Of a DNA stretch of 64,000 bases, positions 29,171 to 64,000 are shown piece after piece. The stretch comes from Candidatus Omnitrophota bacterium (GTDB lineage: Bacteria; Omnitrophota; Gorgyraeia; Gorgyraeales; Gorgyraeaceae), in assembly GCA_003485765.1 (NCBI GenBank), contig DNHS01000011.1, positions 9,929 to 73,928 on the forward strand, read 5' to 3'. A program made the translations under genes and the position numbers. A model generated the notes under the pieces. It was not told the DNA's origin. It searched no databases and saw only the letters and a list, made by a program, of their open reading frames with translations. Positions within the stretch are counted from its first letter, which is position 1. The number at the start of each line of letters is the position of its first letter.

Positions 29171-29188
29171 GAAGAGGGAGTAACTACA

Positions 29189-31336: not shown

Positions 31337-31339
31337 CGC

Positions 31340-31894: not shown

Positions 31895-31909
31895 AAATAT
31901 AGGCGATGA

Positions 31910-33130: not shown

Positions 33131-33999
33131 TATTTTTAATAGGCCCTACAGCCTCAGGGAAAACCAGCCTGTCTTTAAAACTTGCGCGAAAGTTAAATGC
33201 CGAGATTATCTCCTGCGATTCAATGTGTGTCTATAAAGGCATGAATATACTTACCTCTAAACCTTCTGCGGACGACATGGAAAAAGTAAAACATCATCTT
33301 ATAGACATAATTCAGCCCACTAGAGAATTTAGCGTTGCTGAATACCGCTCTATGGCGCTTGAAAAAATAGAAGAGATTCTGAAGCGCAAAAAAAACCCTT
33401 TATTTGTTGGCGGCAGCGGCTTGTATATCAAAGCTGTTATAGATGGCCTTTTCCCATCAGCTGAAAAAGATCTAAGGTTTAGAAAAAAACAGGAGGCCCT
33501 TGCCGAGAAATACGGCAAAAGCTATTTATATAAAAAATTGTGGAAAATAGATTCTGATCGAGCTAAAAAAATACATCCAAATGACTTAAGGCGCGTTATA
33601 AGAGCGCTTGAAATTTACCATACGGAAAAAAAGCGGCCTTCTGAATTAGCGATAGATACAAAGCCGTTGAAATATGACTTTAAAATCTTTGGCCTCAAGC
33701 TTGATAGAGATGAACTTTACAAAAATATAGATGATAGAGTATATCAGATGTTTAAAAAGGGCATTGTTGAAGAGGTAAGAAAGCTTTCCAAGAAAAAACT
33801 TAGCATGACCAGCCAGAAGGCATTGGGGTATGGTGAAGTTTTGGGCTATTTAAAAGGCGAATATTCTCTGGAAGATGCCAAAGAGCTTCTTAAGAAAAAC
33901 ACCCGTCATTTTGCCAAAAAACAGCTGACCTGGTTCCGTCCCGACCGCCGCATAATCTGGGCCTCTAACTTTACAACTGGTGCCTGGCACCATTTGTAA
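33121..33999 (+). CDS. miaA: tRNA dimethylallyltransferase
   Basis: P-loop GPTASGKT and the overall IPT-family pattern; 292 aa. Confidence 0.85.
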   Translation: MPVIFLIGPTASGKTSLSLKLARKLNAEIISCDSMCVYKGMNILTSKPSADDMEKVKHHLIDIIQPTREFSVAEYRSMALEKIEEILKRKKNPLFVGGSGLYIKAVIDGLFPSAEKDLRFRKKQEALAEKYGKSYLYKKLWKIDSDRAKKIHPNDLRRVIRALEIYHTEKKRPSELAIDTKPLKYDFKIFGLKLDRDELYKNIDDRVYQMFKKGIVEEVRKLSKKKLSMTSQKALGYGEVLGYLKGEYSLEDAKELLKKNTRHFAKKQLTWFRPDRRIIWASNFTTGAWHHL

Positions 34000-34027
34000 A
34001 GTTAGGGATGGGTAAGGGGTTATTGGT

Positions 34028-35257: not shown

Positions 35258-35270
35258 CCCCCCCCTGCTA

Positions 35271-35299
35271 TTGACAACATTGATAATATAGTGTATAAT
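35271..35299 (+). promoter_or_regulatory. Consensus sigma-70 promoter (TTGACA, 17 bp spacer, TATAAT) upstream of the giant ORF
   Basis: -35 at 35271-35276 and -10 at 35294-35299, about 95 nt upstream of the ATG at 35394, in an AT-rich leader. Confidence 0.6.
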
Positions 35300-35393
35300 A
35301 TTACAATAGTAGTTGTTTATTTCTAAAATAAATGTATTTAAAAAGTATTTAAAATAAGTTTATTTATGCAATAATAAAAAACCATGAGTAATT

Positions 35394-38300
35394 ATGTTAG
35401 ACTGGCAGAATAAAACCTGGATTAAGATAATATCAACAGTTCTTATAGTGGCTTTTCTTACATATGACATAGCCTGGGCAACGGACTTTACCCCTCTCCA
35501 GAAAAAACAATACACTTCAAGAAGCCTATTTAAGAATAAAAAAGTCGATCAGACTACCATAAGCTCCCAGAATGAACAAAGCCTAGAAACAATAAAAGAC
35601 GCTCTATCTCATAAAAAGAATAATAATACAAAAGATTCTATATATCACAAAGACTCTACTCTTAGCTTAAAAGCTTCTTATATTAATGATATAGCTAATA
35701 TATATATCAATGATACTCTTGGTAAAGTAATAGATTCTTACACTTCTCCTAATTCAAAAGGAACAGTAATCCATATCCAGGATCTCCACACTAACCCAGA
35801 AGCATCTCTTAACTTAGCAAATATCTTAGAGATTCTGATCAAAGATTATGATCTTAACTTAGTCTGTTCAGAAGGAGCAAGTGGAATAGTAGACACATCT
35901 AGTGTATCAAACTTCCCAGATAAAGATGTAAGGGAAAAAGTCGCTCGAGTCTTTATTAACTCAGGAGAGCTTACAGGAGAAGAGTATCTATCTATAACTA
36001 AATATCCCAATCTACCTATCTGGGGCATAGAAGATAAGGATACATACTTCCAGCATATCATAGAATTCAATAAGATAATAAAGTTCTCCAAAGATGCCCT
36101 GAATCTTATAAATCAAATAAAAGATGAGTTAAATAACCTAAAGCCAAAGATATATTCAAAAGCTCTACTAGACCTAGATTCCAAAGAAATTGAATACCAA
36201 GAATCTAAATTAGATACTACTAAATACCTGGAGTATCTATTAAACTTAGCTAAAGAGATTACTTCGGAAGCCACCTCTAAAAGTTCTCCTCGCAATGACA
36301 TAAGCCTATCTAACTATAAGAATATAACTATCTTTAAAGAAACCCTGAACCTTGAAAAGACAATAGACCAATCTAAGATTATAAAAGAGTCTCAAGAGAT
36401 CCTATCAAGCCTCCAATCTATCTTAAAAGATAAGGACAATAAAAATGAATTAAAGTCATTATCAATAAAAGCATCTCTATTCAAAGATAAGAAAATCTCC
36501 CCATTCTCATTCTATAGCTACTTGGATGAATTAGCCCGCCGACACATAAAAGACTTAGATAGCTATACTAACTTAATTAACTTCGTATCATATTTAAAGA
36601 AAATAAACTCCCTTGATTCCAATAAGCTCTTTAATGAAATAGAAGAACTCACCTTTGATATAAAAGACCTTATCTCAGACAACCCTAACCAGAAACTCCT
36701 CACTAAAGCCTTAAGGAACATACATTTCTTAGAAAGCTTCTTTAATCTCAAAGTCTCGAATGAAGAATTAGAATATTATCTTAAAGATAAGGATAGCTTC
36801 AAAGTAACATTCTTTGAAAGCTACTTAAAAGAAAACCTTCAAAAATACAATATAGATTCTTTCATAAATTATAACCCAGACCTAATAGATAAAAACCTAC
36901 CAGATCTCGAGAACTTCTACGGACTTGCCCATAAAAGAGACCTGGCAATGTTTAATAACACAACAAGCGAGATAGAAACTCGTAAACCTAAATTAACAGC
37001 CCTGATAGCAGGCGGATTCCACACCCAAGGCATAACAAAGCTCTTAAAAGACAATAACTATTCTTATGTAGTTATCTCGCCATATTCAAAGACAACTATA
37101 GATGAAGAGAACTATAGAAACTTATTGGCAGGGAAAAGAAAACCACTTAAAGAACTGATAAAAGGGCTTAATGAGAAATTAAGGCCTCTTATGGGGTTTG
37201 TTAATAGAGGGGTTAGAAAGGATTATAATAATCAAGTACCCCCTACTCTTAGGGTATTAGGCATAATTATTGCTGAAGCGCAGCCTCTTGCAGAAAGAGT
37301 TACGATGCTGCTAGCTGTAGCAGGAGGGCAAACAACAGAGCCCGTTACTACTTTAGCAGCTATAGCTCCTGATCTACACACAGTTGTTACTTCTACAGAA
37401 TCTGTTCTACCTGATGTAAGAATAGAAGGCATTAAACCAGAGGTTACAGCCACAGTACCTCTTGCATACAGTAGCGCTGATCTCACAATGACAGATCCTC
37501 TTGAAGCAGTTTTACCTTCAGCAACGTCTACTTCAAGGGTAGAGGCTGCGGTTGTTTCTTTAACTGATGAAACTTCTGCGTCGTATACTACTACCACGCA
37601 AGTTTTTGCTCCACCAGGAGCTGTTACAACAACAATGCAAGAACAATTAGCTATACTGCCACCAGAAGAAGTTGTAACATTTACAGGCCCAACCATTGGC
37701 CGTACCAGCATATCTACTGTGACCAGCGCAGCTGCTTTACCTAAAGCGAAAACGGTTGTTTCAACAGTGACTACCGCGGTTGCAGGCGCTAGTGTCATGT
37801 TTTTCCAGCAGCAAGGAACTAATGAGCCATTTTCAACTGCATTTTTATTATCAGCAATAGCAGTTGGGATTATTTCGATTGCCTTGTTAGTATTTGTGTT
37901 GTGGCATTCGAAACGCGCCCAGGAGATAGACGAAGTAGAACATTTCTTTAACGAAGAAGCCTATGATAGCGACTCTATTATCGTACCTCTAGATAGGGGC
38001 GAAATAGTTAAAAAGGCGCCTTTTATTATCATGACTATTTTGGCTTGGATTTATTTTGCAGCACACTTAGAGATGTCCCATAAATTTGTATGGTTATTAT
38101 TGATTGTTTCGTTAGGATTCTATGGAGGAGGAGTTTTATCTAATATTATTGAACCTTTGTTGTCAGAGCATATGGAATCGCGCGATTTTAAATCGTTACG
38201 TGGCGCTAATCCTGCTGATCTATTTCAGCTTGCCAATGCTATAGTATCCTATGGGATTATAGGTTACTTCATGGGCCCGGTAATGAATTTAGATACATTT

Positions 38301-41300
38301 CCAGCCATTGTCTTAGGTATCGCTGTTGGTTTACTTTTTTATAGATTTCATATTTATCATCATTTTATTGAGAGATATTTCAAAGCCTATACAAAATTTA
38401 AAAATGACCCATATAGCATTGCGATAACAAATGGCCAACCTATGCCGTTATGGCTGAGCCCATTGTATAAAATCTATGATGTTGCATTTTATATATTGGG
38501 GATTTTTGAAGTTTTGCTGCCTATACTGGCTGTGAAAACCCTTATATCTCCAGCTATGGAAGGAGCTATATTACCATTGGATTCAGGCTCTCCACAACTG
38601 GCGCTTTTTGCTGGGACTATATTGGCGTCTTTCAAGTCAGCAGGGACGCGTATATCGCACTGGAAATCTGATTTGTCCGCAGTTTTAAGAACTCATGTAA
38701 AGTTACTCCCAATCGTTTTAATTATTCTGGCTTCCGGGCTTAATCTTGTATTCGGGGTTGCTATGCAAAGCCAGGGAGGGGGATTGCAGTTTGAGTTGTT
38801 GTTTCCGATACTCGCATTTATCTCAGCAGTGTCGGTATTTATCTGGCTCTCATGGAAACTCCCTGACGGTCTGCCTAAACCCATGATTATGTTTTTTGCA
38901 GCTGCTGCGGCGTATATAGTTGTGGGCTATGGCCTGCCATTGCTCATTTACAATGCGCATGTTTTTGCTTATGGCCTTGGAGTGCCTGGGTTACCTACGC
39001 CATGGCCAACAGGCACGCCAATACCTACATTAACACCTGTACCGACATGGACGCCTACTATGACACCAACCGCGACTTCTACGCCCCTACCTACTTTTAC
39101 ACCAGTTCCATCGTCTACTCCTTTTGCACCAGGGTCGACATTACAACCGCCTTTGATTGACCAAAGCCAAGGCGATTTTATGGGTCCTGTGTGGAGCGCA
39201 TTAGCTATAGCAGGGTTCTATATGTTTATGTGTGTTACAGCTCTCATTGAATTTGGCAAGAGCCTGTCTATACGGGCCAAGGCAGGTATCGTGGTTATTC
39301 CAGTATTACTGATGTGGCTCGCAGTATATTATCTGGATCCTGCGCTTGCTCTGGCGCTAAATCAGCTCTGGTCAGACCTCTGGCTTTCATTAACTACTGG
39401 TTTAACAGGCAGTCTGCTGGAACCAGGCACTTCACAACTAGCGCTTTCTGCGGGAACTACATTGGCAGTTTCTGCGGCATTATTAGGCAAAACTCATAAA
39501 AGCATTGATGAAATTGAAAAAGTCGTGTTATCCGGCGCACTTGAGCCTGGTCAGCGCGTGGAACTTATGCTGGAGATGGCTGGGCTGCTCAAAGCAGCTG
39601 ATAATGAAGCAGGGGGCGCTTCAGATACAGGTGAACAACTCCCATTGTTTGAAGCTGAAACATTGACATCGCCAGCGCGCCTTGTTATCGAAACACAAGA
39701 AGGAAAAAGTTTGTATGACACAGCCAGAGAAAAAATAGTTGCGCCTTTTCTTGATGCGCTCTCTGGATGGATTCAAGTTATACAGCAGGGGCCAACTAAC
39801 ATGCCTAAAGGATTAGGTAGATTAGTCGGAGATGCCAGGAATATTTTTGGGCTAAGTGAAGTAATCGGCCATCGCAGCCGCCAAGATTTAGATACAATGT
39901 GGCAGAAAGATAAGCCTGATCCATTTTTGTTATGGACAAATTGGGAGCAGTATAAAGATACTTCTGATAGTAAAGACATTTTACTGCGCGATGCAATAGC
40001 AATGAGGCTTTGGGAAATGCTTATAGGCTTGATAAATACAAGGCTCGTTAAGCTTGAGAAAGATTTTCTTAATGAAGAAGCTGAACATAATCTTAAGGAT
40101 GCAGAACTTAAGCTAATGGATCCTAATGCAAAAACAATAGCTCATTTTCCTCAGATGTCTAGTATCAGAGCTCAAATAAATGGCCTGGCTGCAGCTCGTA
40201 AGGCCATTGTGTTATCCGGGCCAGCTGAATTATACAAGATGTTAACAGCGATAAAATTAGGAAAAAGTTCTGAATGGACTTTAACTCAAAGAAATCATGT
40301 TAAAGAGTTTTTGAACCAACATATTGACGGAGGAGTATATCAGATTAAGCTAATAAGAATATTAGAAGTTCTTAATGAATGGCAAGAAGAACATTTTGTT
40401 GTTATATCTGCGCCCAGCGAAATGCAGCCTATAGCTTTAATCAACCAGCGCCTGGCCGCGTTGTTTGATCCTGCGACGTTTGCTGAAGGGCTGCGGCTGG
40501 TTGCTGCGACAGTTACAGATGCTCAAGGCTTTACCAAGCGCCTTGCAATTGTAATTCAGGCTGTAGTAGGGGATGGAGCAGGTGAAAAGGCTCAGATGAA
40601 CCGTAAAGCTATAGCTATTGCCTTGGTTGGATTGTTAGAGCAATCTAATCCTCAAACTGCTATTGTTCTCGTTGCACAGACCATAAGAGCGCTTGTCGAG
40701 GACAAGCCAGGTCTGGCCTATGATTTGGCAGGCGATTTAGCTGGACTTTCTCCAGAGCGTTTTAATCAGGTGGTAGATGGGAATATTGAAGTGCTTGGCA
40801 ATATTATGAATGCGCTGGGATGGGGGCAACTTCCTGCTTTAAATCAGTCAGAGGCAGTAATTAATAAGATGGAGCAGGTGGAGTTGAATGCTGATCCAAT
40901 CGATGCGCTTACAAGCGGGCCATTGGATGATGTTTTTTTTCAACAGCTCAATGCAGAACTCAGTCCGGAGACGCGCAAGACAATCAGGCGGATTCCTAGC
41001 CTGGCAGCTTTCCTGCTTGGCTTGAAACCTATTTTCTACAATTCCCGCAATAATCCAAACATCCACCGCGTGGTGTTGAACATGATAGAGGCGCCCAGTG
41101 TGCAGAAGAGGCTGGCTGCCGGACAGTGGTCTATGTCCCAATCACCATGGCGTGGTATTATACTGGCTTCCAGGGATTGGATCAGTCAGATTGACGACGT
41201 GCTGAAGATAGCGTTGGCTGATGCCAACCGTGAGGCTCTAGCCAAACAGGTGTTTGATGCGGCGGGTGAATTCTTTGCCAGAACGCATGGCAACCCGCTT

Positions 41301-59300: not shown

Positions 59301-62300
59301 ATCTATATTCCCCTTGCTGAAAGGTTAGGATTATCCAGCGTGGCAGGTGAACTAAGAGAGAGGATATTTTTCTTGGAACAAAGAGATGTATATTTAGCTA
59401 CAAGAGAGCGGCTATTAAAATATGAAATGTTTGGCAGGGGAATGGATTATGAGGAAGCTAAGAGAAGATGGGAGGAAGATGAAAGATTGCAACTTGAAAA
59501 TGAGTTGAAAAATTTAGAAACCAGAGTTCCTGGGCTTATAATCGAGACGCTCAGCCTAAGAACAAAAAATATTTATTCTATCAGGGAGAAAACACAGCGA
59601 AAACCAGACGAATATCCTGGCCCAGAGTCTGAAAGGGATATATTTGGAATAAAGATTTTGATTAATTCGAGAGATTATCTTGCTAGGGTATTAGAATTTC
59701 TCTCAAACCGCTATGGTGTAAAGACAGTGGGAGCAGAGGAAAAGCATAGACTATATAAAGTTTATCATCTTAATCTTCAGGATGAGCAGGGTAGATATAT
59801 AGAAATCCAGATATTCTGGGATAAAGCTGAGTATTTGAAAGAAAGAACAGGTGAGTACGCTCACTGGGTAAAGAAAGCAAGTGAAGAAACCGGGGAAAAA
59901 TTTTCTCCTGACAAAGTTGAAAATGATATGGGAAAACTTGTCCCTATTGAACTGACAGGAGATTTCTTTGAAGATTTTAACGCTATCCATGGTTCCCCGG
60001 TTATAAGAAACTGGGTTTACGTAGTTTACCATCCGGATGGCAGAGCCTTAAGGCTAAAGAGAGGCGCTACAAGCGCTGATTTTGCTTCTCTGCCCCGCAT
60101 CGATCGTTTTGATGCCAATTTTAGCGGAATAACTATCGCAAAAACCAGCTTGGATTTAATATCTCCACGTGAAATACAGGATGAAGAGGAACAGGCACTT
60201 CTTATTTATCATGATATGATAAGCGTCGCTATACGTGAGCATCTTGAGAGAGGTTTAAATAATGAAATATCTCCTGGAGCTGAAATTTTGTCTTTTAAGA
60301 AGAAAAATGAATATCTTTTAGGTAGCGAAGGTGAAAAACGTAAAGCAGAAATCGAAAGAACAGCAAAACATCTTCGCACAATTCTTTTGCTTAGGCTACT
60401 TTCATTGAGCAAACCTGCAGAATTTCGGGCTGAAAAAATAGAAAGAGGCAAGAAAGCGCTGGCGCGGACTTTAGGTATTGATATTAAAAGAGATTTTCAG
60501 ATGCGTACTTTTCTAAGGCCGCTTGTTTATCAATATGACTTGGCTGATGCGGATGAATTATATATTTGCCTTGCCTTGGCAGAAGAAGGAGATAGGGCAA
60601 TAAAAGAAAGATTATTTGATTTATCAGATATCAGGGAGATGGCAAAAAATATCGGGCAGGAAATATTAGAGAAGGAAAAGATTCAATTAATGGATAAGGA
60701 TTTAACCAACTTTAATTTTGAATCAAAAGAGCAACTCTATATTGCCCTGGCTACAGGGCAGATTGAGACATCTGAAATCATCAAGCGTAGAACTTCTAAT
60801 AAGGATCTTTTTGTTAAGAATATGTTTGAGAAACAAATTTCATTCGATTGGGCTGCTTTTCGTAGAGGTGAAGATACGTCATTAAAGATCTTAGCCGGAG
60901 CATTTATAGATACAGAACAATATGTCCTTTTATATGATTTAAAGATAATCAAAGGCAAGCATATTATTATCAAGAATGCAAATATTTCTAATCCGCGCGA
61001 TTTTGTTTTATTGGAGTTAGTTATAGGGATGCTTAAAGACCATGGCGCTAAGGTTACAGTATCAGGGCTGCAACTTGCATATTTAGATACTCCAGAAGGT
61101 AGGCTTCATACTGTTATTCTTAAAGGCATTATAGAAAGATTAAGCAAAGGCACGCATGATTTTAAAAAGGCATCTAAAACGCGGCGTATTACACCTAAAC
61201 CAGATCAGATATTATGTCTTGGCGCGCAAAAACAGGGTTTGGCGCAGACACTTGCAGAAAAGTTTAATATAGGATATGCAGAAGTATCAGTAACCCCATC
61301 TGCTGATGAATGGCCACTCGTAACACTCCCTGAGTTACAAAAAAATCTAAAGCATGTTATGCTTGTGGCTGATAGCGCTACTGATGAAGATGTTTTGAAG
61401 ATTCAGTTGACAGTTGCGCTGCTTAAAGCTAAAGGGGTAAAAGAGGTTATTATAGTAGATCCATATATCAGGTATTCCCGCCAGCATCATTTTGAGGTAA
61501 ATAAAATAGGCCAGGCAGGCAGTAATAGTTTCAAGACATTCTTGGATATTCTTGATGGTTTTTCTGGTGGAGATTTTAGAGTCAGCGCGCTCTTTGGCGC
61601 AAATATCCATGCAGTGAAATATGATGATAAGACTGGGGATAGAATATTGGCAGTAGGAGGATATACTGGGGGCATTGATGTTATAGATATAGATGTTTTA
61701 CCTGAAGTTGCCAAATATTTTGTCCAGAAATTTAACTTAGGGCCTAAAAAACTATTTGTGATGGCAACAGATAAAGGTTCTAATTTCTATGCGCAGAATG
61801 TTGTTAACTTTTTGAGAACATTAGGATTAGATGTGGAATTTGTATATGTGAAAAAAATACGTATAAGCGAGACAAAAGTTATATTTGAAAAGCAGATATT
61901 TAGAAAAATCCAAGGAGAAGAAGCAGAAATTGATTTGGATGAATTGAAAGAAGCTGATGTTTTAGTCACAGATGATGAGCTTCGCACTGGAGGCACGCTG
62001 CGTGAATTATGCGATTTGTTAATGAAAGATTTAGAAATTGGCAGGGTCTTTGTGGGCTTTACGCATGCTATATTCTCAAAAGGCCCTGAAGCTTCCAGAG
62101 ATATGTTTAACGATCTCTTGGAACAAGGCAGAATGGCAGCTTCGAATTCTGTCATCTCTGTTACTGAGCGTAATGAAGTCTTGCCTGAAAAGATAAATGT
62201 TGATAGATATATTGTAGACAGTATTTATAGTCATATAGGATCGAATAGCTCTGCAAACAATTTAAAGCAATTAACCCATCACATTATCCCATCCGAACTT

Positions 62301-64000
62301 TTCAGTATTTCAGTCCTTGCGCTAGTATCAGGCATTGTCCCAGTTATCTTAAAGGTTTTGTTTAGGATAGATATACCTGATTGGCTGCCATACCTTAATA
62401 TAGTGACTGTGCCACTAGCTGCATTCTTATTTGGATTAGCTATTTCTATACAGCATACGCTTGACTTGTTAAAAGATACGCTTCAAATCAGAGATGGGCC
62501 ATCAGCAATAAGATGGATTGATTCTCTCTTTAAAAAGAAAACTCCGTCACTTATTGCTGAATTTACAGAATCTGATCAAATTAAGCACGATTCCACCAGT
62601 TACATTGCCTATTATTCTCAAAAAGATAAATTGATCCATATAAGGCGCGAAGCTGTCGAGCAATACCAAGACTATATCCAGCGTCTTATCTACATTAAGG
62701 AAAAAACTCAGCAAGCTCTTAACCAGCCCAAGCTTCCTAATGAAATCATATCCTATGCAGTAATGATTTTAGCAATTGCGCCTGTAATGAGCTTGGAGTG
62801 GAATAGAGGAATTAGATATGCCAGCCTTGGAGCTATGTACTGGCGTCTTTATCAGCATAGCAGTATGCCAAAACATCTGACTGCCGCAATAATCTATTAT
62901 GAAGAGGCAATTAAAGAGGGTGTCTGGAAGAAAATTATCCCCCTGAAGATTCGGCAGGCTATAGAAACGAGAAATACCCCTTATGATAGCGATATGGGAG
63001 ATACTTCATGGCAGGATATAGAAGTATTTGCTGAAAGAGGCCGTGAGGCTATAAAAAATATACTTGGGCAATTAAAATCTGAGATTGAGGCATTTCAAGA
63101 AGCTATCTTCGATGGGCACATAAAATTAAAGTCAGTTGAGCAGTTTCGGCATATAAATAACTGGGTGCATAAGCTCTTTCTGATAGAGGTTGAGCTTCAG
63201 GATAATAAATCCCTTTCATTCTATCTTGTCTATCCAAAAAAAGGAGAAATGCGTGTTATTTTGAAGGGCCCAAAACGCATAATGGCTGATACAGGAAAGA
63301 CCCACCAGGAGCCAGATATTGAGATTAGTTCTCTTCAGAGATATTATGAGGAAATAGAGGATATTGTAGGATTTCTACAGAAGGAATTCAGAAATCCTAA
63401 TGTTTTTCTGGGAGAAGTTAGGTATCTTCGAAAAAAAAGAAGCGCGCAGGTTTTCTTTTCTATAAACTCAGAACATATACAACTTGCGCGAGCAGCTAAT
63501 CCGCTTATCAGTTTTTTGGCAGGGCAATTACCCGATACCTCGTTTGCCTTTCATTCTGCCATTTGCTGGGTAGATACTGAATCTATGGAAAGATATGACG
63601 GAATCGCAGGGGTGCGCTTTGTATACCTGCCTCGCAGCTGGCTTAGACAGCTTACGCCTAAAAAAATCGCAGATATAGGGCACGAATGGTTTCATATCAT
63701 ATGGACAGCATGGCTGAAAAAGGAAATAAAGATTAAAGAACGGCAAACAGGTGGGGCTATACTGCGAGAAGAGGAAATTAGCCATCTCTCAAGGATGGAT
63801 AGGCTGAGGGGATTTGCGTTAAAAGAAGAAGCGCTCTTATCTCTGAGAAAGTGGCTTGCATCAAGCTCTATTTACCGCTTTATTTTTGAGGAAGAAGAAA
63901 AAAATCCCGAAGAGTTCCGAAATGACTTAGCCGAGGAAATTATTGCGCAACTTATAGAGGCTATATTTAAAGGCGATGCTGCCATAGTCAAACCAGAGGA
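35394..64000 (+). CDS. Giant multidomain membrane-anchored protein, 3' partial. It reaches at least 9,535 codons without a stop and runs off the window.
   Basis: Frame 0 (positions divisible by 3) was translated manually from the ATG at 35394; an in-frame TGA lies at 35385-35387. No stop was encountered through nt 64000. The ORF track lists no + strand frame-0 ORF over this 28.6 kb, which is consistent with a single unterminated frame. Spot checks at 45000, 49980, 56100, 63480 and 63960 all read as sensible protein. Signal peptide MLDWQNKTWIKIISTVLIVAFLTYDIAWA. Neighbouring genes use TAA, TAG and TGA as stops. Confidence 0.7.
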   Translation, partial: MLDWQNKTWIKIISTVLIVAFLTYDIAWATDFTPLQKKQYTSRSLFKNKKVDQTTISSQNEQSLETIKDALSHKKNNNTKDSIYHKDSTLSLKASYINDIANIYINDTLGKVIDSYTSPNSKGTVIHIQDLHTNPEASLNLANILEILIKDYDLNLVCSEGASGIVDTSSVSNFPDKDVREKVARVFINSGELTGEEYLSITKYPNLPIWGIEDKDTYFQHIIEFNKIIKFSKDALNLINQIKDELNNLKPKIYSKALLDLDSKEIEYQESKLDTTKYLEYLLNLAKEITSEATSKSSPRNDISLSNYKNITIFKETLNLEKTIDQSKIIKESQEILSSLQSILKDKDNKNELKSLSIKASLFKDKKISPFSFYSYLDELARRHIKDLDSYTNLINFVSYLKKINSLDSNKLFNEIEELTFDIKDLISDNPNQKLLTKALRNIHFLESFFNLKVSNEELEYYLKDKDSFKVTFFESYLKENLQKYNIDSFINYNPDLIDKNLPDLENFYGLAHKRDLAMFNNTTSEIETRKPKLTALIAGGFHTQGITKLLKDNNYSYVVISPYSKTTIDEENYRNLLAGKRKPLKELIKGLNEKLRPLMGFVNRGVRKDYNNQVPPTLRVLGIIIAEAQPLAERVTMLLAVAGGQTTEPVTTLAAIAPDLHTVVTSTESVLPDVRIEGIKPEVTATVPLAYSSADLTMTDPLEAVLPSATSTSRVEAAVVSLTDETSASYTTTTQVFAPPGAVTTTMQEQLAILPPEEVVTFTGPTIGRTSISTVTSAAALPKAKTVVSTVTTAVAGASVMFFQQQGTNEPFSTAFLLSAIAVGIISIALLVFVLWHSKRAQEIDEVEHFFNEEAYDSDSIIVPLDRGEIVKKAPFIIMTILAWIYFAAHLEMSHKFVWLLLIVSLGFYGGGVLSNIIEPLLSEHMESRDFKSLRGANPADLFQLANAIVSYGIIGYFMGPVMNLDTFPAIVLGIAVGLLFYRFHIYHHFIERYFKAYTKFKNDPYSIAITNGQPMPLWLSPLYKIYDVAFYILGIFEVLLPILAVKTLISPAMEGAILPLDSGSPQLALFAGTILASFKSAGTRISHWKSDLSAVLRTHVKLLPIVLIILASGLNLVFGVAMQSQGGGLQFELLFPILAFISAVSVFIWLSWKLPDGLPKPMIMFFAAAAAYIVVGYGLPLLIYNAHVFAYGLGVPGLPTPWPTGTPIPTLTPVPTWTPTMTPTATSTPLPTFTPVPSSTPFAPGSTLQPPLIDQSQGDFMGPVWSALAIAGFYMFMCVTALIEFGKSLSIRAKAGIVVIPVLLMWLAVYYLDPALALALNQLWSDLWLSLTTGLTGSLLEPGTSQLALSAGTTLAVSAALLGKTHKSIDEIEKVVLSGALEPGQRVELMLEMAGLLKAADNEAGGASDTGEQLPLFEAETLTSPARLVIETQEGKSLYDTAREKIVAPFLDALSGWIQVIQQGPTNMPKGLGRLVGDARNIFGLSEVIGHRSRQDLDTMWQKDKPDPFLLWTNWEQYKDTSDSKDILLRDAIAMRLWEMLIGLINTRLVKLEKDFLNEEAEHNLKDAELKLMDPNAKTIAHFPQMSSIRAQINGLAAARKAIVLSGPAELYKMLTAIKLGKSSEWTLTQRNHVKEFLNQHIDGGVYQIKLIRILEVLNEWQEEHFVVISAPSEMQPIALINQRLAALFDPATFAEGLRLVAATVTDAQGFTKRLAIVIQAVVGDGAGEKAQMNRKAIAIALVGLLEQSNPQTAIVLVAQTIRALVEDKPGLAYDLAGDLAGLSPERFNQVVDGNIEVLGNIMNALGWGQLPALNQSEAVINKMEQVELNADPIDALTSGPLDDVFFQQLNAELSPETRKTIRRIPSLAAFLLGLKPIFYNSRNNPNIHRVVLNMIEAPSVQKRLAAGQWSMSQSPWRGIILASRDWISQIDDVLKIALADANREALAKQVFDAAGEFFARTHGNPLTLEEQTQVLDTVNSQLATLPYDEVLEGVVCGIPLLDAVLFGVFRGLPETFHLPFGGLPSEFSIPNLRYFNQRFPAAPDYVVFTQFFAERLKKWDSKIAQAYGRMEHNGYSNSGSVYIDMVNPEIGMLRNQVEVILEAARKVGKSIKIWLRVKHRVSIDTNKLPEERRWLGDIVNRADGDSIEGILSALEKAGVDTSILPDDYNSRLNTYITTLAQLGKALVIDPTQEVSPQQGADFNEAFEQCRMALESAGFNGPPESEDLLIPSDMTDSYLIFERISARWNNLITSLASEVYNQTLKATNNPDAAWVAANLILTTNGAEGVSLTTSPLIIKDDTFNNASKLLSPLAHLGLVTASSILNLGAGDTLDISIVAAEAEPAPKLAYDANRKTGAALVMGARDGLPAEALEVFASDTRDNSLWATAAVEPVAVSKMHADVADDITVVSIDQNLPTADLVHDVLEALKLTLMVEGDADESAATLQQHEAHLLVEAKRVKDVREIAKKGAKDYVAEHLNTEVVIEEHTPSYVPLSTEDIENKSLRKAIGRINRELIARHPITAGVLAELYDIALGRKKDGVDEADSFRKLVTVIAEAMRQEAEKQPSPGTSPIEDFPVRLLLRDGECYFVTRRTMLTLPEFVSGVTQAHGVLLPQAVDWSIFAQHVWDSMILRGEALQAVVERAMVLQEAFLKETARSYTKTYGQSFQTVRTIQGLVEVPPDTYRFTDLYPDLLQTGDTLRQQLPSIDPVRRIIAGAKQPLETEADIERLVEQPAREVVRHLKRLGVQTDTANAYGSGLKRVSWEGPDGNFYITLLQRESYNIEALSTEPLQPKAPTDMVLEELSEWIGDRPQQLAKQYEAKLEALQEQHADNPEALANALEAFHAERQAALQKFAEEIFSKTIESLAAMSVDDQIAHTLANFITQWALAITGAYSVSATESHPQGRFLYPAGCLARGIEGLTRKMYQDIRREGLSCSFNRDKTRRTSVYPEAVSFALCPDEMFASGRTTAIDKFGPSKSKDNVTFVLDPEWVKANKGKFKLVGSVFDPSGPSRIRYSEGLELLGLEKHEYEVEVRVIGTDLFVGNRDEIHFISISQEQFEDIPPEAILGIIARPEKIIEMLQWDRELGLGSLPMFAWKREPYVRKLSLFDPDVEETNAQLALKVITEAKNRIAQAGDLETIRAMNDIFEFARKLGAVEIEGEEAGSCFTSEMGILALDENGWGIIEEMRKDASAFNHLRESDGYIQLLARLGEYDKVNGPGIYFNREAVLQREREQRYKVTKSYFVIKLYELLVSEFNLIDIDFYQTTFYKHPIVLEGGFRFASLMGPDELQVILTLIKKYMDSRFLSREGIREYIVKLMEDSGTQEFHEESLEMFTSGVDRDMLRALRSQPAVVPAPAGNDSETAGTGYFSGEKWADIFSGRSSQIKDNDLTAHYQERILRVVEDALRKNSLDDTDRAIFQAVANGLRQGAYYIYGFKGIVVGSNDYCLGLHSFNPGFSRLFLATDVMAELETVGGPELVDAYFLRLLQSSSSQRYNMSLENAMLRGFIDGERHFIELRGFKTPETERLAEETAREFLEYTVVREYLRASGVYQGFDLQKLCGFILDETTGAWQPPEIEGGRRLKLYVSASEDIEQLRREIRNGLWHVLRVTPRSIEGRLTSEAKKILPPEVIEQIERIGSWDLAKWTEDDFNAITLSGRAIYLKLLNPIRIGNETFEAVRLIGSVALELLPPLLIPHRRGRGLNIDSKGAIERGGFDPLGGLILEGALTETETLLLLRQAGYDVSYPCGHYRYPGQVFEGDETGFSVMLMHEGQEKRMFDQWGEIMNTSGFSRGRHVLGPIYKMGRFSRWIQENLGRTWPGQHYTNVSLTGAELRSVRFHDFKESKVLPDNIAQAVGLRFLDIAEFVMHNEYSIKMGADSEQAIERVATELKLAKAYLEGYFADLLNKPDPRIVNFLTEEEFPNTIEFIKSVMRNSIPSGEYYSVPIYQIKHPLIALLIELEEKRQSRRERLASPGGLGTSSDISSSVASSLMGVRNDSLRVIPLAEMTLRKVPKKPVEQGEPVSEEINTAVTAEAENAAAAAKAQKVDTVQAEAVVGNAIQSLIHLTNQVTNLINNMGEGKYASQPNALEGIQRQLKAVVERVVDVDKIPASTSGIDVVKGQIRTLEILLGFLEALEPGKSATGMAPEQADSPDSLANIISQLQIILAQFQAERVKLGNKIEEWRFQRSLTGLSGLEKFLGAVIALTAIIIAPFGIGYLAGGISGVVAVWFALFLLTVSWAPLDWFMKEDWKAGTVSLGIATLALLFLPKFGVSAADYLIYPWTAWMAIGMFRMILGGIRGNRNDFSAVEADAYQGIDFSQIAVNLRNSWPVRLLNWLTFSVIFPAIQLVSEQIRQALSDDEFKKQIAALGDTIVQSYQEAVTAGNALQETVKDVQGEMEAIQGEMGRLSINVETAGNEITGLFSQFKELEKLSQKLEDEIGQARQEVEKRWADALPAARAKAEQVKALHSQMSALADDSQVHIDRIHTFDHERKQALLARFSALRESIEKLNSGVAKTKEVLDALELQVQKSRNSLKQRNLAVAQQHVNTGKQLVALAEQLLEQVDKGVRDAELEWEPAITDDAVSQGQFEVNLEQEKEALRVDKQRMADLLLKAASLVEEMVIEKQVIRAETAHVITNARAAGGQLRRATMTMEESLEAIRLRSGGLSGEVDTAGQKLQEALDKLGKSRSAADKEIGNIIQARAKGDTALKEIGRFRDDLIGKRVDSKSVQTKLLELSLQVEQAQDAINTAGETAKALLPNQKIWNEALQAMMLVARTAHDVLSRQYERTRLAEERLTEAEAVNMSGSEEYQALIASGQAEKLAMASLNADIETMISRGLADIAESLLATRAQRALLIKTYTDWIASVKAARENMGQQLALFGEALERIDYLIEERKSQKALQLSLQAKFRQLEEELRPGEVTLEIRGEDWIRMIGDENLLRVLIEKNPFLRVDNIAYVLSNNGAPVILYIRIQVLSPDERIFRPIEVGFGFEARQETLRIAKERMQELRAISDPLLKLLEDMREQFGIPETAIKWEDSRSSVKGRMLVRRLPPAEEDKGIPIQDVFGYGILGAIEKSRQPEWVDQLIKAQETEPGSLLEEFVRFMESGRTTTDPRSRPGWASSGGWGSAMPAERKLQEVSLVTADSAVMHRPNVGWHNDAGRLWRRQGIGGLLPIFTRMFKAVGIDGLKRILFFQPLLEWLCFTVLPSSIAIYITGQPITSPEGLLIFGVVGVFMQIPFLLGHISDKRLLLPAALVAIGASLPGALLVLGFSLPLAVVALGPLIAHIAINSVFRIYLLSIDTLPSNSDAFSEISARAPPFVLRAIWLRLVINNVLKVISEDKKVILTGHNNYEAIKEVYYEIARRKPEALDKIYIRPKYITKNITPRVKAKLDKLKSKYPDTLPLNILINVTIIEGKDGIRIYRAPLLRELKNNEVYRLNLESSVQNGVGEFALRKENFPADDPERVIVCELAGRLVSGVITYIKEGDIPNTYNMLRDEFENKEVLLKGEVTLWCYWIFSRSITLWPKALIYFIGEWIKFISSGRRTPKPSWKKIKLRGLGSQTVDAVIEYVKHLKTIFGDDVQIVIAAYSRASEYYKFHAKVMIENENDYINKFFKQFNVIWGGHSGINYYPYAVVKKETEDKYNKAGFDELFAYLLWLKDKKYKLAEAHKYFGLFLIEHQEYRVFDDTIWFHCRNALAKGMVPVVGPVQLNSRPEDIEGGYANVPVFYRGEQRRQIITNSILNNEAIKNRLGDAEGAELRTIYDNIIDLAVQAIIDGEVNKEKLDKLCGDLRGRAPSNPEKIGEFLLDLYYLLRNENYFNLEKQTLLKIFTRLFAELIAPFRMTRPADVRYPAKMADNISKALDNSISRAETLIAKIGGEFRVKETKLSDIETTIEFVNETDKPFISCQKIRVSSEVEITQIRFEDGANVEIIAKGDAENRSYIMVDGSMSVTYPALKKVLEALGIEISKIEKIIITHADMDHAGGALNLARESEKPVYVHRDFQKILKSRFHYKANNQDEHLLDYLCTMVFKIMSDFREPDGIKNIFYYKESSVSREFGGLGFNMLAEEGFGDTKILVLEAGGHTQDGIIIMLTDNKYNPLGIISGDVCIPKTIKPEQARFVFTLQRLSGQLNLDEGTLKKTEEALLSVEGIRIWPGHGKSYMTGKRIDRDLSDAARMPLLQPFYDRFGSGWVGQALMPTLIESVLGGILFTTIINLLGTFIFGIPFSFGPPSQEILFGFFLLFHLLHLPGALAEVPGATNLQQLKFAFSGGKLLTTLPAFILVALGLLDPMSGLILHTILHFVENIFWRDINKHYRIVSRDLNSSWGRNLIEKQYESMEINSSLYQLFFILILPFYALKKLLQHVSVATIEGIKEACGQLSKGYSEAGKKLPQGFSYLDELEKDDIIATIKLVNPEVITPHEKAADASELYKVIAATGIFSWPRVLIFSQIKYDKKEDRFVKLDDSLLLDFIMDTPVPKFIIAEFFIRNFITPFLLFALNSRFSAVFVRRSILHSGFFSWPIIVAKAPTGSLYEYVIVDGTNRWNVARILGLELVPVQVVDYEAEEPATGKKLIKIGRWDMLARIKPSDWEEFKVFCKSERIGLFEMTDLNQSIGEFNGAPFARFCYVDENDKIAWYALGDPGDRSIINSGSHGFKKAFNLVYDYMLAKWIHEGIARDKIPNAHELDISKMQKGDLLILRPMLTKEEILASANTGAWIGVKTERHVLDGLIGRVVGGVAVPLTTLMGLDGSPDEVNMKLHNDLANARWVRFHKDSWLDRFYGESTLAPEFPFGIKTSLIFKDVSNGFVLQFKGYRDIGRLIFNLRNFFKLPWLAAALSSFAIVPFDNLNPSILLDSSTIESLFSINIIFVFLGIFALIILTLTPLNPIAGIGLYRLLQAPYKIAPQKFTTTLSRKQWEDFRNPHWIYSISNIFPSGVKMLAERFLWTTFVQQQVIRLILDEFRPEATAQSHFFGRLYSNLIINSIKLLRPKLLALNMISILAVMLFSPSGALFILSITVTVIASIIMFVYGEHLRARIVRRGFEVGQYAHLKENLPSDREMPLFHKAFDFLIEKSNVSIQKPGFFRDSGDLAIFHVMNVAERFAGRVKSMKQRYPDLNWILPGNLSGKDKGSNFEDELFAASMLHDIIESKQATLDEIEQRFGRRVRYYVQLLTKDDVDESLPPEELEREEAKRDRKYLEGLYSGIHKTPQKDKPWGLPCLLIKLEDRMSNIETIDAFKDEQGKSSIERQIEYLNETVSLMLFGHFAYLSICKDDGSLEKALLDDVLNNLKEKLYENYRRLETCGLSQEELKKLAFIKERLEAIERLAEFHGDIFKIGSISIPLTLDYVLLAEANFRYLNKEDANKRRQKELAVGNILEAYRLAGVSILHEARANWPLLEAVAIFDEAITCQAQLGKEDLNNAQEIFAKIAMLMEPSGFETQYKNIFINKRPQEEGLRYFVLINQPFGRERAILAVSTLLPVEDRDVKKALRRNLRASAGLRDVETPKAKVDKIRSYLKKVLNLLEICDENIEKTVDNVFNHMSSFTAERRQASLMKLSWLCKAWGEMSDLRIAKLQAAILLGNPLLHSAIFSKQQLPEEDLEIVKEIEEYAASYYRGGFKELMRQVFRRYFSRTLVNDELKSQYNELLALAGDDKFWDLLWECSEKEDLTPPDLNLLSVCINDCFSNLPIATSAQRKEVFEIISWAKMEGFLNEAVGLLSEKGIPRKGDIRHPLLVLLLSYLQNPTEERKALLIGVLKELAQPETHIKVSEVETMFKTDLAPLISLAEENETIGKALKIAHKAYNGRFFLGGAQRYIDHAMLYAAHVLKLAKELDLPLSIQENLICAALLHGLEQDIDGIKTYLISEGELDKTAAEHIAKLATKVRDVTKIPYFPPESGTYFIYNHMNLIIQEAASPEVMLLAFCDRLASISVVGNIPSNLKQYADYVIREAKQIYIPLAERLGLSSVAGELRERIFFLEQRDVYLATRERLLKYEMFGRGMDYEEAKRRWEEDERLQLENELKNLETRVPGLIIETLSLRTKNIYSIREKTQRKPDEYPGPESERDIFGIKILINSRDYLARVLEFLSNRYGVKTVGAEEKHRLYKVYHLNLQDEQGRYIEIQIFWDKAEYLKERTGEYAHWVKKASEETGEKFSPDKVENDMGKLVPIELTGDFFEDFNAIHGSPVIRNWVYVVYHPDGRALRLKRGATSADFASLPRIDRFDANFSGITIAKTSLDLISPREIQDEEEQALLIYHDMISVAIREHLERGLNNEISPGAEILSFKKKNEYLLGSEGEKRKAEIERTAKHLRTILLLRLLSLSKPAEFRAEKIERGKKALARTLGIDIKRDFQMRTFLRPLVYQYDLADADELYICLALAEEGDRAIKERLFDLSDIREMAKNIGQEILEKEKIQLMDKDLTNFNFESKEQLYIALATGQIETSEIIKRRTSNKDLFVKNMFEKQISFDWAAFRRGEDTSLKILAGAFIDTEQYVLLYDLKIIKGKHIIIKNANISNPRDFVLLELVIGMLKDHGAKVTVSGLQLAYLDTPEGRLHTVILKGIIERLSKGTHDFKKASKTRRITPKPDQILCLGAQKQGLAQTLAEKFNIGYAEVSVTPSADEWPLVTLPELQKNLKHVMLVADSATDEDVLKIQLTVALLKAKGVKEVIIVDPYIRYSRQHHFEVNKIGQAGSNSFKTFLDILDGFSGGDFRVSALFGANIHAVKYDDKTGDRILAVGGYTGGIDVIDIDVLPEVAKYFVQKFNLGPKKLFVMATDKGSNFYAQNVVNFLRTLGLDVEFVYVKKIRISETKVIFEKQIFRKIQGEEAEIDLDELKEADVLVTDDELRTGGTLRELCDLLMKDLEIGRVFVGFTHAIFSKGPEASRDMFNDLLEQGRMAASNSVISVTERNEVLPEKINVDRYIVDSIYSHIGSNSSANNLKQLTHHIIPSELFSISVLALVSGIVPVILKVLFRIDIPDWLPYLNIVTVPLAAFLFGLAISIQHTLDLLKDTLQIRDGPSAIRWIDSLFKKKTPSLIAEFTESDQIKHDSTSYIAYYSQKDKLIHIRREAVEQYQDYIQRLIYIKEKTQQALNQPKLPNEIISYAVMILAIAPVMSLEWNRGIRYASLGAMYWRLYQHSSMPKHLTAAIIYYEEAIKEGVWKKIIPLKIRQAIETRNTPYDSDMGDTSWQDIEVFAERGREAIKNILGQLKSEIEAFQEAIFDGHIKLKSVEQFRHINNWVHKLFLIEVELQDNKSLSFYLVYPKKGEMRVILKGPKRIMADTGKTHQEPDIEISSLQRYYEEIEDIVGFLQKEFRNPNVFLGEVRYLRKKRSAQVFFSINSEHIQLARAANPLISFLAGQLPDTSFAFHSAICWVDTESMERYDGIAGVRFVYLPRSWLRQLTPKKIADIGHEWFHIIWTAWLKKEIKIKERQTGGAILREEEISHLSRMDRLRGFALKEEALLSLRKWLASSSIYRFIFEEEEKNPEEFRNDLAEEIIAQLIEAIFKGDAAIVKPE
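37830..39490 (+). other. Giant protein: first polytopic transmembrane region (about a dozen hydrophobic helices) containing a Pro/Thr-rich linker at 38979-39150
   Basis: Runs of 20-25 hydrophobic residues (e.g. FLLSAIAVGIISIALLVFVLW; IIMTILAWIYFAAHL) and the linker GLPTPWPTGTPIPTLTPVPTWTPTMTPTATSTPLPTFTPVPSSTP. Confidence 0.5.
47990..50200 (+). other. Giant protein: second TM cluster (47990-48450) followed by a roughly 570-residue coiled-coil-like region rich in A/E/Q/L/K/R heptads
   Basis: Hydrophobic helices (VIALTAIIIAPFGIGYLAGGISGVVAVWFALFLLTVSW...) are followed by heptad-like sequence such as LQETVKDVQGEMEAIQGEMGRLS...LEQEKEALRVDKQRMADLLL. Confidence 0.45.
53260..53930 (+). other. Giant protein: metallo-beta-lactamase-fold domain with a variant metal-binding motif (TH-A-D-M-DH-AGG instead of HxHxDH)
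   Basis: IIITHADMDHAGGALNL at 53352-53386, then downstream LEAGGHTQDG, ...GDVCIP... and IWPGHGK, matching MBL motifs 2-5. It resembles the glyoxalase II THxHxDHAGG signature with a His-to-Asp substitution. Confidence 0.5.
55030..55115 (+). other. Giant protein: ParB/sulfiredoxin-like (DGxxR) nuclease-fold motif
   Basis: YVIVDGTNRWNVARILGLELVPVQVV resembles the ParB N-terminal domain core. Short match identified by eye. Confidence 0.3.
56640..57260 (+). other. Giant protein: SpoT/RelA-type HD (p)ppGpp-hydrolase-like domain with intact catalytic residues
   Basis: AIFHVMNVA (His), AASMLHDIIESKQAT (HD plus ED..T) and LLIKLEDRMSNIETI (Asp) align with SpoT YITHPLAVA / AALLHDVIEDT / LIKLADRTHNMRTL. 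Confidence 0.6.
58821..60180 (+). other. Giant protein: complete long-RSH N-terminal module. It has a degenerate HD (HG instead of HD), a RelA/SpoT nucleotidyltransferase ((p)ppGpp synthetase)-like domain and a TGS domain.
   Basis: KIAHKAYNGRFFLGGAQRYIDHAMLYAAHVLKL...AALLHGLEQD aligns with the SpoT HD domain. The synthetase motifs are DIFGIKILINSRDYLARVL, YKVYHLNL, RYIEIQIFW and EYAHWVKK (compare D.xGIR, GYQSLH, EIQIRT and AHWxYK). The TGS-like segment is VYVVYHPDGRALRLKRGATSADFA. Confidence 0.65.
61200..62190 (+). other. Giant protein: full-length ribose-phosphate pyrophosphokinase (PRPP synthetase, Prs)-like domain
   Basis: ILCLGAQKQGLAQTLAEKFNIGYAEVSVTPSADEWPLV aligns with the Prs N-terminus ([35 protein letters not shown]). 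VIIVDPYIRYSRQHH aligns with AVIPYFGYARQDRK. VLVTDDELRTGGTL aligns with the PRPP-binding loop ILVDDMIDTAGTL. The whole domain is about 330 residues. Confidence 0.6.

Follow-up and report, generated by a model that had tools for sequence, protein, structure and literature searches.

The stretch studied here, 64,000 nt of contig DNHS01000011.1 (assembly GCA_003485765.1) from a Candidatus Omnitrophota bacterium and called the window in the following, raises a simple question: is the open reading frame (ORF) which occupies its last 28.6 kb one gene, and if so, of what is its product composed and how could it have reached this size? An earlier note, made from the letters alone, had described the product as a giant membrane-anchored multidomain protein. 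This description is supported by the frame, the promoter, the transmembrane (TM) clusters, the linkers and five domain calls. Alignments with compact relatives furthermore show the giant to be an expanded member of a modular family which shares one signal peptide and the core blocks Y and Prs. On balance we favour the reading that a single Omnitrophota gene with its own promoter codes for a multi-enzyme protein which is threaded through the inner membrane, has a length of 9,535 amino acids (aa) or more, would have grown by modular accretion and would act as a tethered nucleotide hub.

A single reading frame of more than 28.6 kb

The stop-free frame spans positions 35388–64000 (28,613 nt). It starts with the ATG at 35394, is preceded by an in-frame TGA at 35385 and contains 0 stops in 9,535 codons, in line with the earlier note, which had spoken of over 9,500 codons. 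The second-longest stop-free stretch in the whole window measures 3,135 nt, and the five remaining frames of the giant-ORF region carry 298–948 stops apiece. With the given base composition (stop probability 0.0675 per codon), the chance of meeting no stop in 9,535 codons is about 1e-289. The consensus promoter noted before is exact as well, with TTGACA and TATAAT separated by 17 nt (Table 1), and two contigs of independent origin, L001 and L002, carry the whole intergenic region between hflX and the giant gene at 100% identity. The GC content of the window climbs to 0.42–0.47 at 38–51 kb, the source of which are codon positions 1 and 2. GC at the third codon position (GC3) is 0.28–0.44 throughout the giant ORF, the same range as in the upstream housekeeping genes. 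Internal repeats were not found in the visible 9,535-aa protein. A correlation of relative synonymous codon usage with the upstream genes was dropped as evidence, since an off-frame control already gave r = 0.58. The 28.6-kb frame is real, encodes the first part of a giant membrane protein and probably represents a single Omnitrophota gene.

Compact relatives reveal a modular family

Family members were found by an exhaustive HMMER search with giant aa 7790–8989. The key matches were P0054 (the fragment on contig L021), P0055 (2,102 aa) and P0056 (1,126 aa). A word-indexed protein search had missed both P0055 and P0056 although they are in its collection; therefore negative results of that search are weak evidence. 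P0055 and P0056 both open with the signal peptide of the giant ('MLDWQ.KTW.KIIS...AWATDF'). The architecture of P0055 is signal peptide, head, X, Y, Prs, and that of P0056 is signal peptide, Y, Prs. In alignment, P0055 covers giant aa 1–774 (56% identity), 8962–9134 (61%), 5330–5792 (36%) and 8478–8947 (74%), and P0056 covers aa 1–34, 5330–5849 (40%) and 8482–8947 (70%). L023 matches the same giant ranges as P0056 (aa 1–34, 5330–5849 and 8482–8947). P0055 (on L020) and P0056 (on L022) are complete genes between ordinary genes and end a few residues past the Prs block, a point beyond which the giant runs on for at least 400 residues. Both compact architectures recur in further metagenomes (L023; L024 with L025), and the P0055 cluster includes OIO34682.1 of the metagenome-assembled genome (MAG) CG1_02_40_15, from which L004 also comes; the HflX of L004 and that of the window are 91% identical. 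The genomic sites differ from each other: the giant gene follows hflX, the member on L019 follows DeoC, and that on L020 lies between Wzi and PilZ.

Since the signal peptide and the core blocks of the giant recur in compact homologues from close relatives, one can see directly which blocks are inserted and where their boundaries lie. Two large inserts are visible, and both show clean in-frame boundaries in the alignment with the compact forms. Insert A consists, in this order, of the end of a linker rich in Thr, Val, Ala and Pro, a TM bundle of about ten helices (aa 812–1314), a soluble part (aa ~1320–4200), a TM cluster (4206–4358), a helical coiled-coil-like stretch (4356–4930) and a further TM cluster (5234–5303). 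The soluble 2,900 aa of insert A have no family or PDB match. At insert B the relatives read '...YAELKKGIP/ISLDWTAFRKGE', where the slash marks the boundary, and the giant reads '...FAEL/IAPFRMT', followed by 2,630 aa and then '/ISFDWAAFRRGE'. For module Y, which lies between the inserts, the word-indexed database gave no match, in a search known to miss family members, and an AlphaFold2 model from a three-sequence alignment was unusable (mean pLDDT 46.5). Module X is found after Prs in the giant and between head and Y in P0055.

Growth by in-frame accretion of modules would account for this pattern, the head and the long RelA/SpoT homologue (RSH) described below existing elsewhere as stand-alone genes. 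As several blocks equal stand-alone genes and the boundaries are readable, 'growth by in-frame module capture' becomes a testable model. An origin by fusion of an operon was rejected, because the genes 3' of stand-alone head genes (contigs L016 and L017) bear no relation to the remaining parts of the giant.

Independent assemblies and the question of an artefact

The frame could in principle be the product of assembly, either as a chimera of loci or paralogues or by indels which fused neighbouring genes. Three independent contigs, which reproduce parts of the gene at 99.6–100% identity, bear on this question. L001 (ENA ERZ27254745) corresponds to window positions 24014–35661 at 99.8% identity and covers hflX, the promoter region and the first 89 codons; L002 (Logan SRR6482978) corresponds to 30551–35423 at 100% and covers the same region with the first 10 codons. 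L021 (ENA ERZ28564412) matches 56808–58772 at 100% and, after an N-gap, 58879–60729 at 99.2% without an indel, with all 15 mismatches located at most 70 nt from this gap. The earlier note had named a mis-join of unrelated loci as the danger to its claim: here independent assemblies reproduce the 5' junction and, inside the gene, another 3.8 kb, but none of these contigs spans a block junction (~37.7, 51.38, 52.94, 60.84 and 62.24 kb), and L021 ends 108 nt before the one between insert B and Prs.

Moreover, L001 and L002, which are from the same organism, break within 30–270 nt of the ORF start, and the last ~100 nt of L021 (3888–3989) depart from the window after 60729, inside the RSH C-terminal region, to reach a stop 11 codons on. 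These breaks and the divergence indicate that structural variants or assembly problems do exist at the locus. Short-read contigs typically end at Omnitrophota giant genes, and the breaks of L001 and L002 fit this (bioRxiv 10.1101/2023.11.21.568195, 10.64898/2026.06.07.730766). For the tail of L021 there are two explanations: a chimera at the end of the scaffold, or a giant gene which is genuinely truncated or rearranged in that population. Beyond its early stop L021 shows the end of a convergent gene. Past 60729 the window reads EQLYIALATGQIE, matching the conserved C-terminus of stand-alone RSHs (P0059 DELFIAIGSGRID, P0057 KQLFIALATGQIT); thus, at the point of divergence it is the window that carries the natural sequence.

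Two further points could speak for an artefact, namely that the head module is multi-copy (two paralogues, P0006 and P0012, occur in one MAG) and that the block order is unlike that of P0055. Random joins, however, cannot yield a 28.6-kb frame with 0 stops, and indel errors usually break giant ORFs and do not build them. Neither are there internal repeats to mislead an assembler, and GC3 is uniform and host-like. The head runs on into the linker also in P0055, in three independent assemblies. Together with the reproduced segments and the natural RSH C-terminus this makes an artefact very improbable.

The head module

A query with aa 31–620 found 53 homologues of 29–68% identity (most 47–57%), all of them from Omnitrophota where an organism was named. 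Most are complete stand-alone proteins of 558–600 aa (~565), each with a signal peptide and encoded on contigs as long as 378 kb; they end at '...MNEK', equivalent to giant aa ~595. The closest relative, P0045, is 70% identical over aa 1–311, has the same N-terminus and is located at a contig end, in a third genomic context. Across 41 homologues three putative active-site residues, H132, E160 and E213, never vary, and a fourth, H543, is conserved in 90% or more. From the predicted structure the head may be related to the EreA/ChaN/TraB(GumN)/TIKI superfamily (EreC 6xcq, ChaN 2g5g, HopBA1 5t09, RRSP 5w6l). It differs in that the head has no Pfam match and that its fold would be split by a helical insertion of ~300 aa. 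A Foldseek search of the head model against the PDB gave nothing significant.

A small PilZ gene lies directly 3' of both compact genes (L020 16381–16716; L022 3513–3866) and of one stand-alone head gene (L016 11735–12424). This adjacency may be coincidence, PilZ genes being abundant, with eight in the 21.7-kb L016. The flanks of relatives also carry inteins, in a ribonucleotide reductase gene (L017 450–4055, intein and LAGLIDADG) and in a UDP-glucose dehydrogenase gene (L020 2110–4869, intein).

Enzyme-like domains

To identify enzyme domains, the protein was divided into two sets of tiles, which were compared with hidden Markov models (HMMs) and with PDB sequences. The HMMs recovered every domain type the earlier note had listed, i.e. 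metallo-beta-lactamase (MBL) fold, ParB-like, HD, RSH and Prs-like, the ParB-like one weakly. The coordinates are given in Table 1.

Table 1. Features of the window; residues are those of the giant protein; kaa, thousand amino acids
Feature	Residues (aa)	Position (nt)	Strand	Remarks
Four-tRNA cluster		12071–13056		Arg-TCG, Lys-CTT, Leu-TAG, Gly-GCC
Sigma-70-type promoter		35271–35299	+	TTGACA-17-TATAAT; 12/12 consensus matches; ~95 nt 5' of the ATG
Giant ORF		35394–64000	+	at least 9,535 codons, zero stops within the window
Signal-peptide-like segment		35394–35480	+	MLDWQNKTWIKIISTVLIVAFLTYDIAWA, then TDF; common to all family members
Head module	~100–596	35691–37181	+	predicted EreA/ChaN/TraB/TIKI-like fold with large helical insert
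Insert A	~775–5329 (~4.6 kaa)	37716–51380	+	boundaries from alignment with compact relatives
Module Y	5330–5849	51381–52940	+	conserved core block; 36–41% identical to P0055, P0056, L023
Insert B	5850–8481 (2.6 kaa)	52941–60836	+	MBL, ParB-like, HD and RSH domains, two TM clusters
MBL-fold domain	5953–6104	53250–53705	+	Lactamase_B 52–53 bits, cut-off 22.7
ParB/Srx-fold segment	6524–6580	54963–55133	+	weak; closest SerK (ADP-dependent serine kinase), SbnI
MESH1/SpoT-type HD domain	~7107–7260	56712–57173	+	H...HD...D ligands: IFHVM, MLHDII, LEDRMSN
Long-RSH module	7792–8470	58767–60803	+	pseudo-hydrolase, synthetase, TGS, C-terminal region
Prs block	8482–8950	60837–62243	+	conserved core; 70–74% identical to P0056/P0055
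Module X	8962–9134	62277–62795	+	three TM segments; 61% identical to P0055 residues 910–1095
Unmatched sequence	9135–9535	62796–63998	+	contains the only HExxH motif of the ORF, 63678–63704 (aa 9430)

The ParB/Srx segment scores 17–25 bits, always below the cut-offs (ParB_N 17), with E = 1.1e-5 for the SerK model and weak PDB matches to 5x0e and 1vk1 (E ~0.004–0.008); a DGTNR motif is present. HD_4 was detected twice along the giant. In the domain at aa ~7107–7260 it reaches 20.5 bits when scored alone, below the cut-off of 27.2. This domain shares the H...HD...D ligands and the 'K.xDRxxN' helix with the small alarmone hydrolases of MESH1/SpoT type (PDB 5vxa, 3nr1). It matches them only over a short stretch (E ~6e-4 to 2e-3), has ES for ED after the HD motif and is, unlike these, fused into a giant protein.

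The RSH module has the complete architecture of a long RSH. RelA_SpoT scores 37 bits, above its cut-off; the module aligns to the Rel structures 7oiw and 6yxa from HD through TGS, and stand-alone RSHs of 680–830 aa align with it from end to end. Compared to the long RSHs Rel, RelA and SpoT (7oiw, 6yxa, 1vj7), the alignment extends over the whole length with RxKxxxSxxxK, DxxG and ExQ kept. The hydrolase motifs are degenerate, with LHGLEQD and DRLAS in place of HD, ED and DRLHN, as is the hydrolase site in RelA. Judged by these motifs this part of the module is a RelA-like pseudo-hydrolase. In the synthetase part RTKNIYSIREK is kept, DIFGIK has K for the R of DxxGxR, and EIQIFW has FW for the RT of ExQxRT, a motif pattern shared by P0054 and P0057. 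The module differs from the long RSHs in that it is embedded in a membrane giant and not free or ribosome-associated, in its 28–33% identity to the nearest stand-alone RSHs, and in being followed by a Prs-like domain. P0059, the nearest RSH of ordinary size (680 aa), has a signal-peptide-like sequence at residues 1–30 (MGNFCKVLTHLLCTVLLTVSVPSYA) and a degenerate HD motif, LLHKI; such a start would be unusual for a stringent-response enzyme.

The Prs block comprises a double phosphoribosyltransferase (PRT) domain with PYIRYSRQHH and DDELRTGGT. Pribosyltran scores 28 bits (cut-off 26.3) and Pribosyltran_N 20.5 (cut-off 25). With ribose-phosphate pyrophosphokinase (closest the archaeal enzyme, PDB 1u9y) it shares the two PRT domains, the phosphoribosyl pyrophosphate (PRPP)/ribose-5-phosphate loop DDELRTGGT and the motif 'PY.RYSRQ'; it differs from it in RQHH, in an N-terminal extension of ~130 aa and in scores below the cut-offs. 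As members of a secreted or membrane family carry the block as their conserved C-terminal core, its substrate may not be ribose-5-phosphate.

An RSH followed after ~500–600 aa by a Prs-like domain is found also in the Omnitrophota giant fragments P0057 (RelA_SpoT 1–83, Pribosyltran_N 674–772; RSH part 44% identical) and P0058, a partial protein of 5,805 aa (RSH 2469–3075, Prs 3461–3728; 28% identical). Since the order recurs in these two, the pair seems to be a conserved unit and not a matter of chance neighbours. P0058 also contains, four to five times, a unit of ~110–160 aa ('...APPELSSWNL.ITTDL.LTQGNVAAC.I.SKTVYLHPYFF...ILYHELISHI...'), at residues ~1–120, 2330–2490, 3100–3260 and 4160–4320, between PGK-like, RSH, Prs-like and other modules; it occurs in P0110, too. 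This unit, unrelated to the window ORF, might serve another family of giant proteins as a recurrent linker or for processing.

Membrane segments, linkers and possible processing

The hydrophobic N-terminal segment (aa 12–30) has an n-h-c layout with AWA/TD, conserved across the family, and is plausibly a signal peptide. Hydropathy further reveals six hydrophobic clusters, at aa 812–1314, 4206–4358, 5234–5303, 6217–6372, 6875–7045 and 8969–9134, with ~25–30 hydrophobic segments in total by this measure. The number of about six TM bundles given in the earlier note was hence right, as were its low-complexity linkers: one, rich in Thr, Val, Ala and Pro, extends over aa 600–815, and within aa 1195–1262 (26% Pro, 24% Thr) lies a P/T repeat proper at aa 1201–1243 (38994–39122). 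Its coiled coil of about 570 aa is seen as a proline-poor helical stretch rich in Ala, Leu, Glu, Gln and Arg (aa ~4356–4930), but the matches to coiled-coil profiles (SMC, TMF, JetC) are weak; a coiled coil is plausible from the composition. Pfam, NCBIfam, PADLOC, PHROGs and the PDB gave no match to aa 1–5900 except coiled-coil noise, a PDB sequence search with the first 5,000 aa none at all. No relative of the last 1,000 aa turned up in the genome-contig and metagenome-contig collections, and the C-terminal 561 aa had no match in the word-indexed protein database with its known misses.

Modules separated by low-complexity linkers and TM clusters, several of them equal to stand-alone genes elsewhere, might also be the units of a polyprotein or multi-product locus, whose frame would be translated wholly or from internal starts and cut into pieces of ordinary size. 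Processing by C39/S8 peptidase domains has been proposed in the literature for other Omnitrophota giants, and the giant has its one HExxH motif at aa 9430. However, HMM searches found no peptidase domain in the visible 9.5 kaa, the region around HExxH has no detectable relative, and there is no evidence of cleavage sites. The HELISH-containing unit of P0058 would have hinted at self-processing, an idea which was rejected: this repeat scores -4.3 bits against the giant and is absent from it. We therefore consider processing into ordinary-sized products distinctly unlikely.

A possible membrane-tethered nucleotide hub or exported effector

On the favoured reading of one intact multi-enzyme membrane protein, the head with its predicted EreA/ChaN/TraB-like hydrolase fold would be exported and face the periplasm or the cell surface. 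The ATP-dependent modules would lie on the cytoplasmic face and form a membrane-tethered nucleotide hub. Its putative parts are a RelA-like alarmone synthetase with a dead hydrolase site, a separate HD pyrophosphohydrolase which appears intact and could undo the action of the synthetase, and a Prs-like pyrophosphokinase. Such a hub might link alarmone and PRPP chemistry to the signals or contacts, of whatever kind, of the membrane and exported parts.

Apart from the contig breaks at the locus, a number of observations weigh against this reading. With regard to catalysis, the MBL metal motif is HADMDH in place of HxHxDH, and the synthetase has EIQIFW for ExQxRT, so that E and Q are kept and R and T are lost. 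TIGR00691 reaches 104.8 bits on the RSH module against a cut-off of 499. In the Prs block RQHH stands in place of RQD(R/K), and the NCBIfam scores of 61.5–62.4 bits (PRK00934 62) compare to cut-offs of 113–296. Because of these motif deviations and sub-threshold scores the modules are termed RSH-like and Prs-like here and not regarded as curated equivalogs. A cytoplasmic hub furthermore holds only if the parity of the TM segments keeps the RSH and Prs modules inside the cell. About 60% of the visible protein is without a detectable relative or domain. As to the history of the gene, the different position of block X in P0055 means that it was not a simple nested insertion, and that the change was insertion here, and not deletion in the relatives, is itself what we infer from the comparison. 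Finally, the five closest hflX loci carry no giant gene downstream of hflX but ordinary genes.

The same modules would have a different meaning if the soluble parts were located outside the cytoplasm or delivered to a host or prey. In such an exported effector array the RSH- and Prs-like kinases would consume the ATP of the target, and head and MBL domain would act as hydrolases. Tas1 is a (p)ppApp-synthetase toxin which consumes the ATP of its target. The EreA/ChaN-like fold predicted for the head occurs also in the effectors HopBA1 and RRSP. Yet the RSH retains TGS and the C-terminal region, as housekeeping long RSHs typically do, and is accompanied by a hydrolase. Also, ~25–30 TM segments argue for a membrane-embedded and not a delivered protein, and the 35 kb upstream hold no secretion-system or glycoside-hydrolase genes. 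An effector function thus appears unlikely to us.

Genomic neighbourhood and host

Relatives of the window's HflX with 79–96% identity come exclusively from Candidatus Omnitrophota MAGs, the next best phyla reaching at most 44%, and organism-named relatives of the giant's modules are from Omnitrophota throughout. The 35 kb upstream code for an RND efflux system (TolC, HlyD, AcrB), RlmN, four tRNAs, CofD, PtsI, MetK, AhcY, LptF/G, an AbiE-like toxin–antitoxin pair (AbiEi and a nucleotidyltransferase), a MiaB-like enzyme, MiaA and HflX. With LptF/G and TolC-HlyD-AcrB this is an ordinary segment of a diderm chromosome. The giant gene is located directly downstream of hflX. Nucleotide synteny with the five closest relatives ends exactly at the hflX stop codon, and as their hflX loci have no such gene, the position of the giant is lineage-specific.

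From this position one may ask whether the gene is a selectively neutral passenger of a mobile or hypervariable site, collecting fragments without an integrated function. The site is different in each relative, the catalytic motifs are degenerate, most of the protein is orphan sequence, and surveys of Omnitrophota giant genes link them to mobile or hypervariable loci. Against this, 28.6 kb without stops require purifying selection on translation. The Prs core block is 70–74% identical between relatives, RSH–Prs adjacency is kept in distant giants at 28–44% identity, and no transposase or integrase gene adjoins the giant gene on the visible, upstream side. We give neutral accretion very little credence.

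Three further observations were made in the upstream region. A near-perfect 39-nt palindrome, TAACTTTACAA...GTGCCNGGCAC...TTGTAAAGTTA, is located at the miaA/hflX junction (33966–34004), overlapping the end of miaA, and is found again in L001 (9939–9977) and L002 (3416–3454). A copy of ~90% identity lies directly 5' of the compact gene for P0056 on an unrelated metagenome contig (L022 7–45). The palindrome could be a conserved terminator or an element similar to repetitive extragenic palindromes of these Omnitrophota. Second, a variable island extends from ~29000 to 31960: the closest relative, L003, matches up to 29002 and resumes at 31960, with ~7.3 kb of other DNA between. In the window the island contains the AbiEi-like/nucleotidyltransferase (AbiEii-like) pair, a metallophosphoesterase and an AAA-type kinase. 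Third, the MiaB-like radical-SAM gene (31910–33130) is intact in the window (406 aa) and split in L001 (7918–9103) into products of 245 and 134 aa; the sole gap in the 99.8%-identical alignment of L001 with the window is one 14-nt indel.

Comparison with published Omnitrophota giants

The earlier note had called proteins of this size extremely rare in bacteria and their content essentially unexplored. This is overstated and out of date, for two surveys list Omnitrophota proteins of 10 kaa and more in the thousands, among them a 'multi-enzyme' class (bioRxiv 10.1101/2023.11.21.568195; 10.64898/2026.06.07.730766). According to the same two surveys there are 5,761 such proteins in Omnitrophota, of up to 147 kaa, and 46 Omnitrophota genes exceed 90 kb. 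In a catalogue of 916 proteins 94% have TM helices or a signal peptide and ~80% are sequence singletons (bioRxiv 10.64898/2026.06.07.730766). A 39,678-aa protein of V. archaeovorus is reported to have been detected by proteomics, and ORFs of at least 20 kb to be transcribed as single mRNAs.

With the multi-enzyme class having signal peptide and TM helices (Nielsen & Lui 2026; West-Roberts et al. 2023) our giant shares the phylum, probably the length of about 10 kaa or more (9,535 codons visible), the N-terminal signal-like segment and many TM helices, about one per 350 aa. Shared, too, are many enzyme domains with none dominant (MBL, ParB-like, HD twice, RelA_SpoT, Pribosyltran), a large unannotated fraction, its nature as a near sequence singleton and the breaking of short-read contigs at the locus. 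Unlike the published subtypes (Archaeovorin/Dockerin-type, West-Roberts 2023), the visible part has no SecA_DEAD, C39/S8 peptidase, glycosyl-transferase/-hydrolase or dockerin/TSP3 domains. Members of the multi-enzyme class are often flanked by genes for type II secretion systems or type IV pili or for glycoside hydrolases, whereas the 35 kb upstream of the giant contain none of these. The giant also stands apart in its content of nucleotide and alarmone enzymes and in having compact homologues of 1.1 and 2.1 kaa which define the inserted blocks. In the main texts of the two surveys there is no reference to RelA/SpoT or (p)ppGpp, to domains of beta-lactamase fold, ParB or phosphoribosyl type, or to an RSH–Prs arrangement; a literature search pairing 'Omnitrophota' with 'ppGpp' found nothing. 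The phenomenon of giant genes is thus published, and what is new here is the compact-to-giant series of homologues exposing in-frame blocks, together with the embedded RSH–HD–Prs unit.

Implications for giant genes in Omnitrophota

Most Omnitrophota giants are singletons with nothing to compare them to; for the present one such a comparison can be made. Tentatively, and with considerable doubt, we suggest that a giant gene starts as a small 'seed' gene for a secreted or membrane protein and takes up whole existing genes in frame, that this locus catches the process between close relatives at 1.1, 2.1 and more than 9.5 kaa, and that RSH–Prs is a conserved unit. The locus appears, from its motifs and alignments, to place a complete RelA-like stringent-response enzyme, a domain of alarmone-hydrolase type and a Prs-like pyrophosphokinase inside one membrane giant. 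If the suggestion is true, RSH–Prs would be a membrane-tethered alarmone/PRPP module linking the stringent response or nucleotide supply to an episymbiotic or predatory surface machinery or, alternatively, an exported ATP-consuming weapon.

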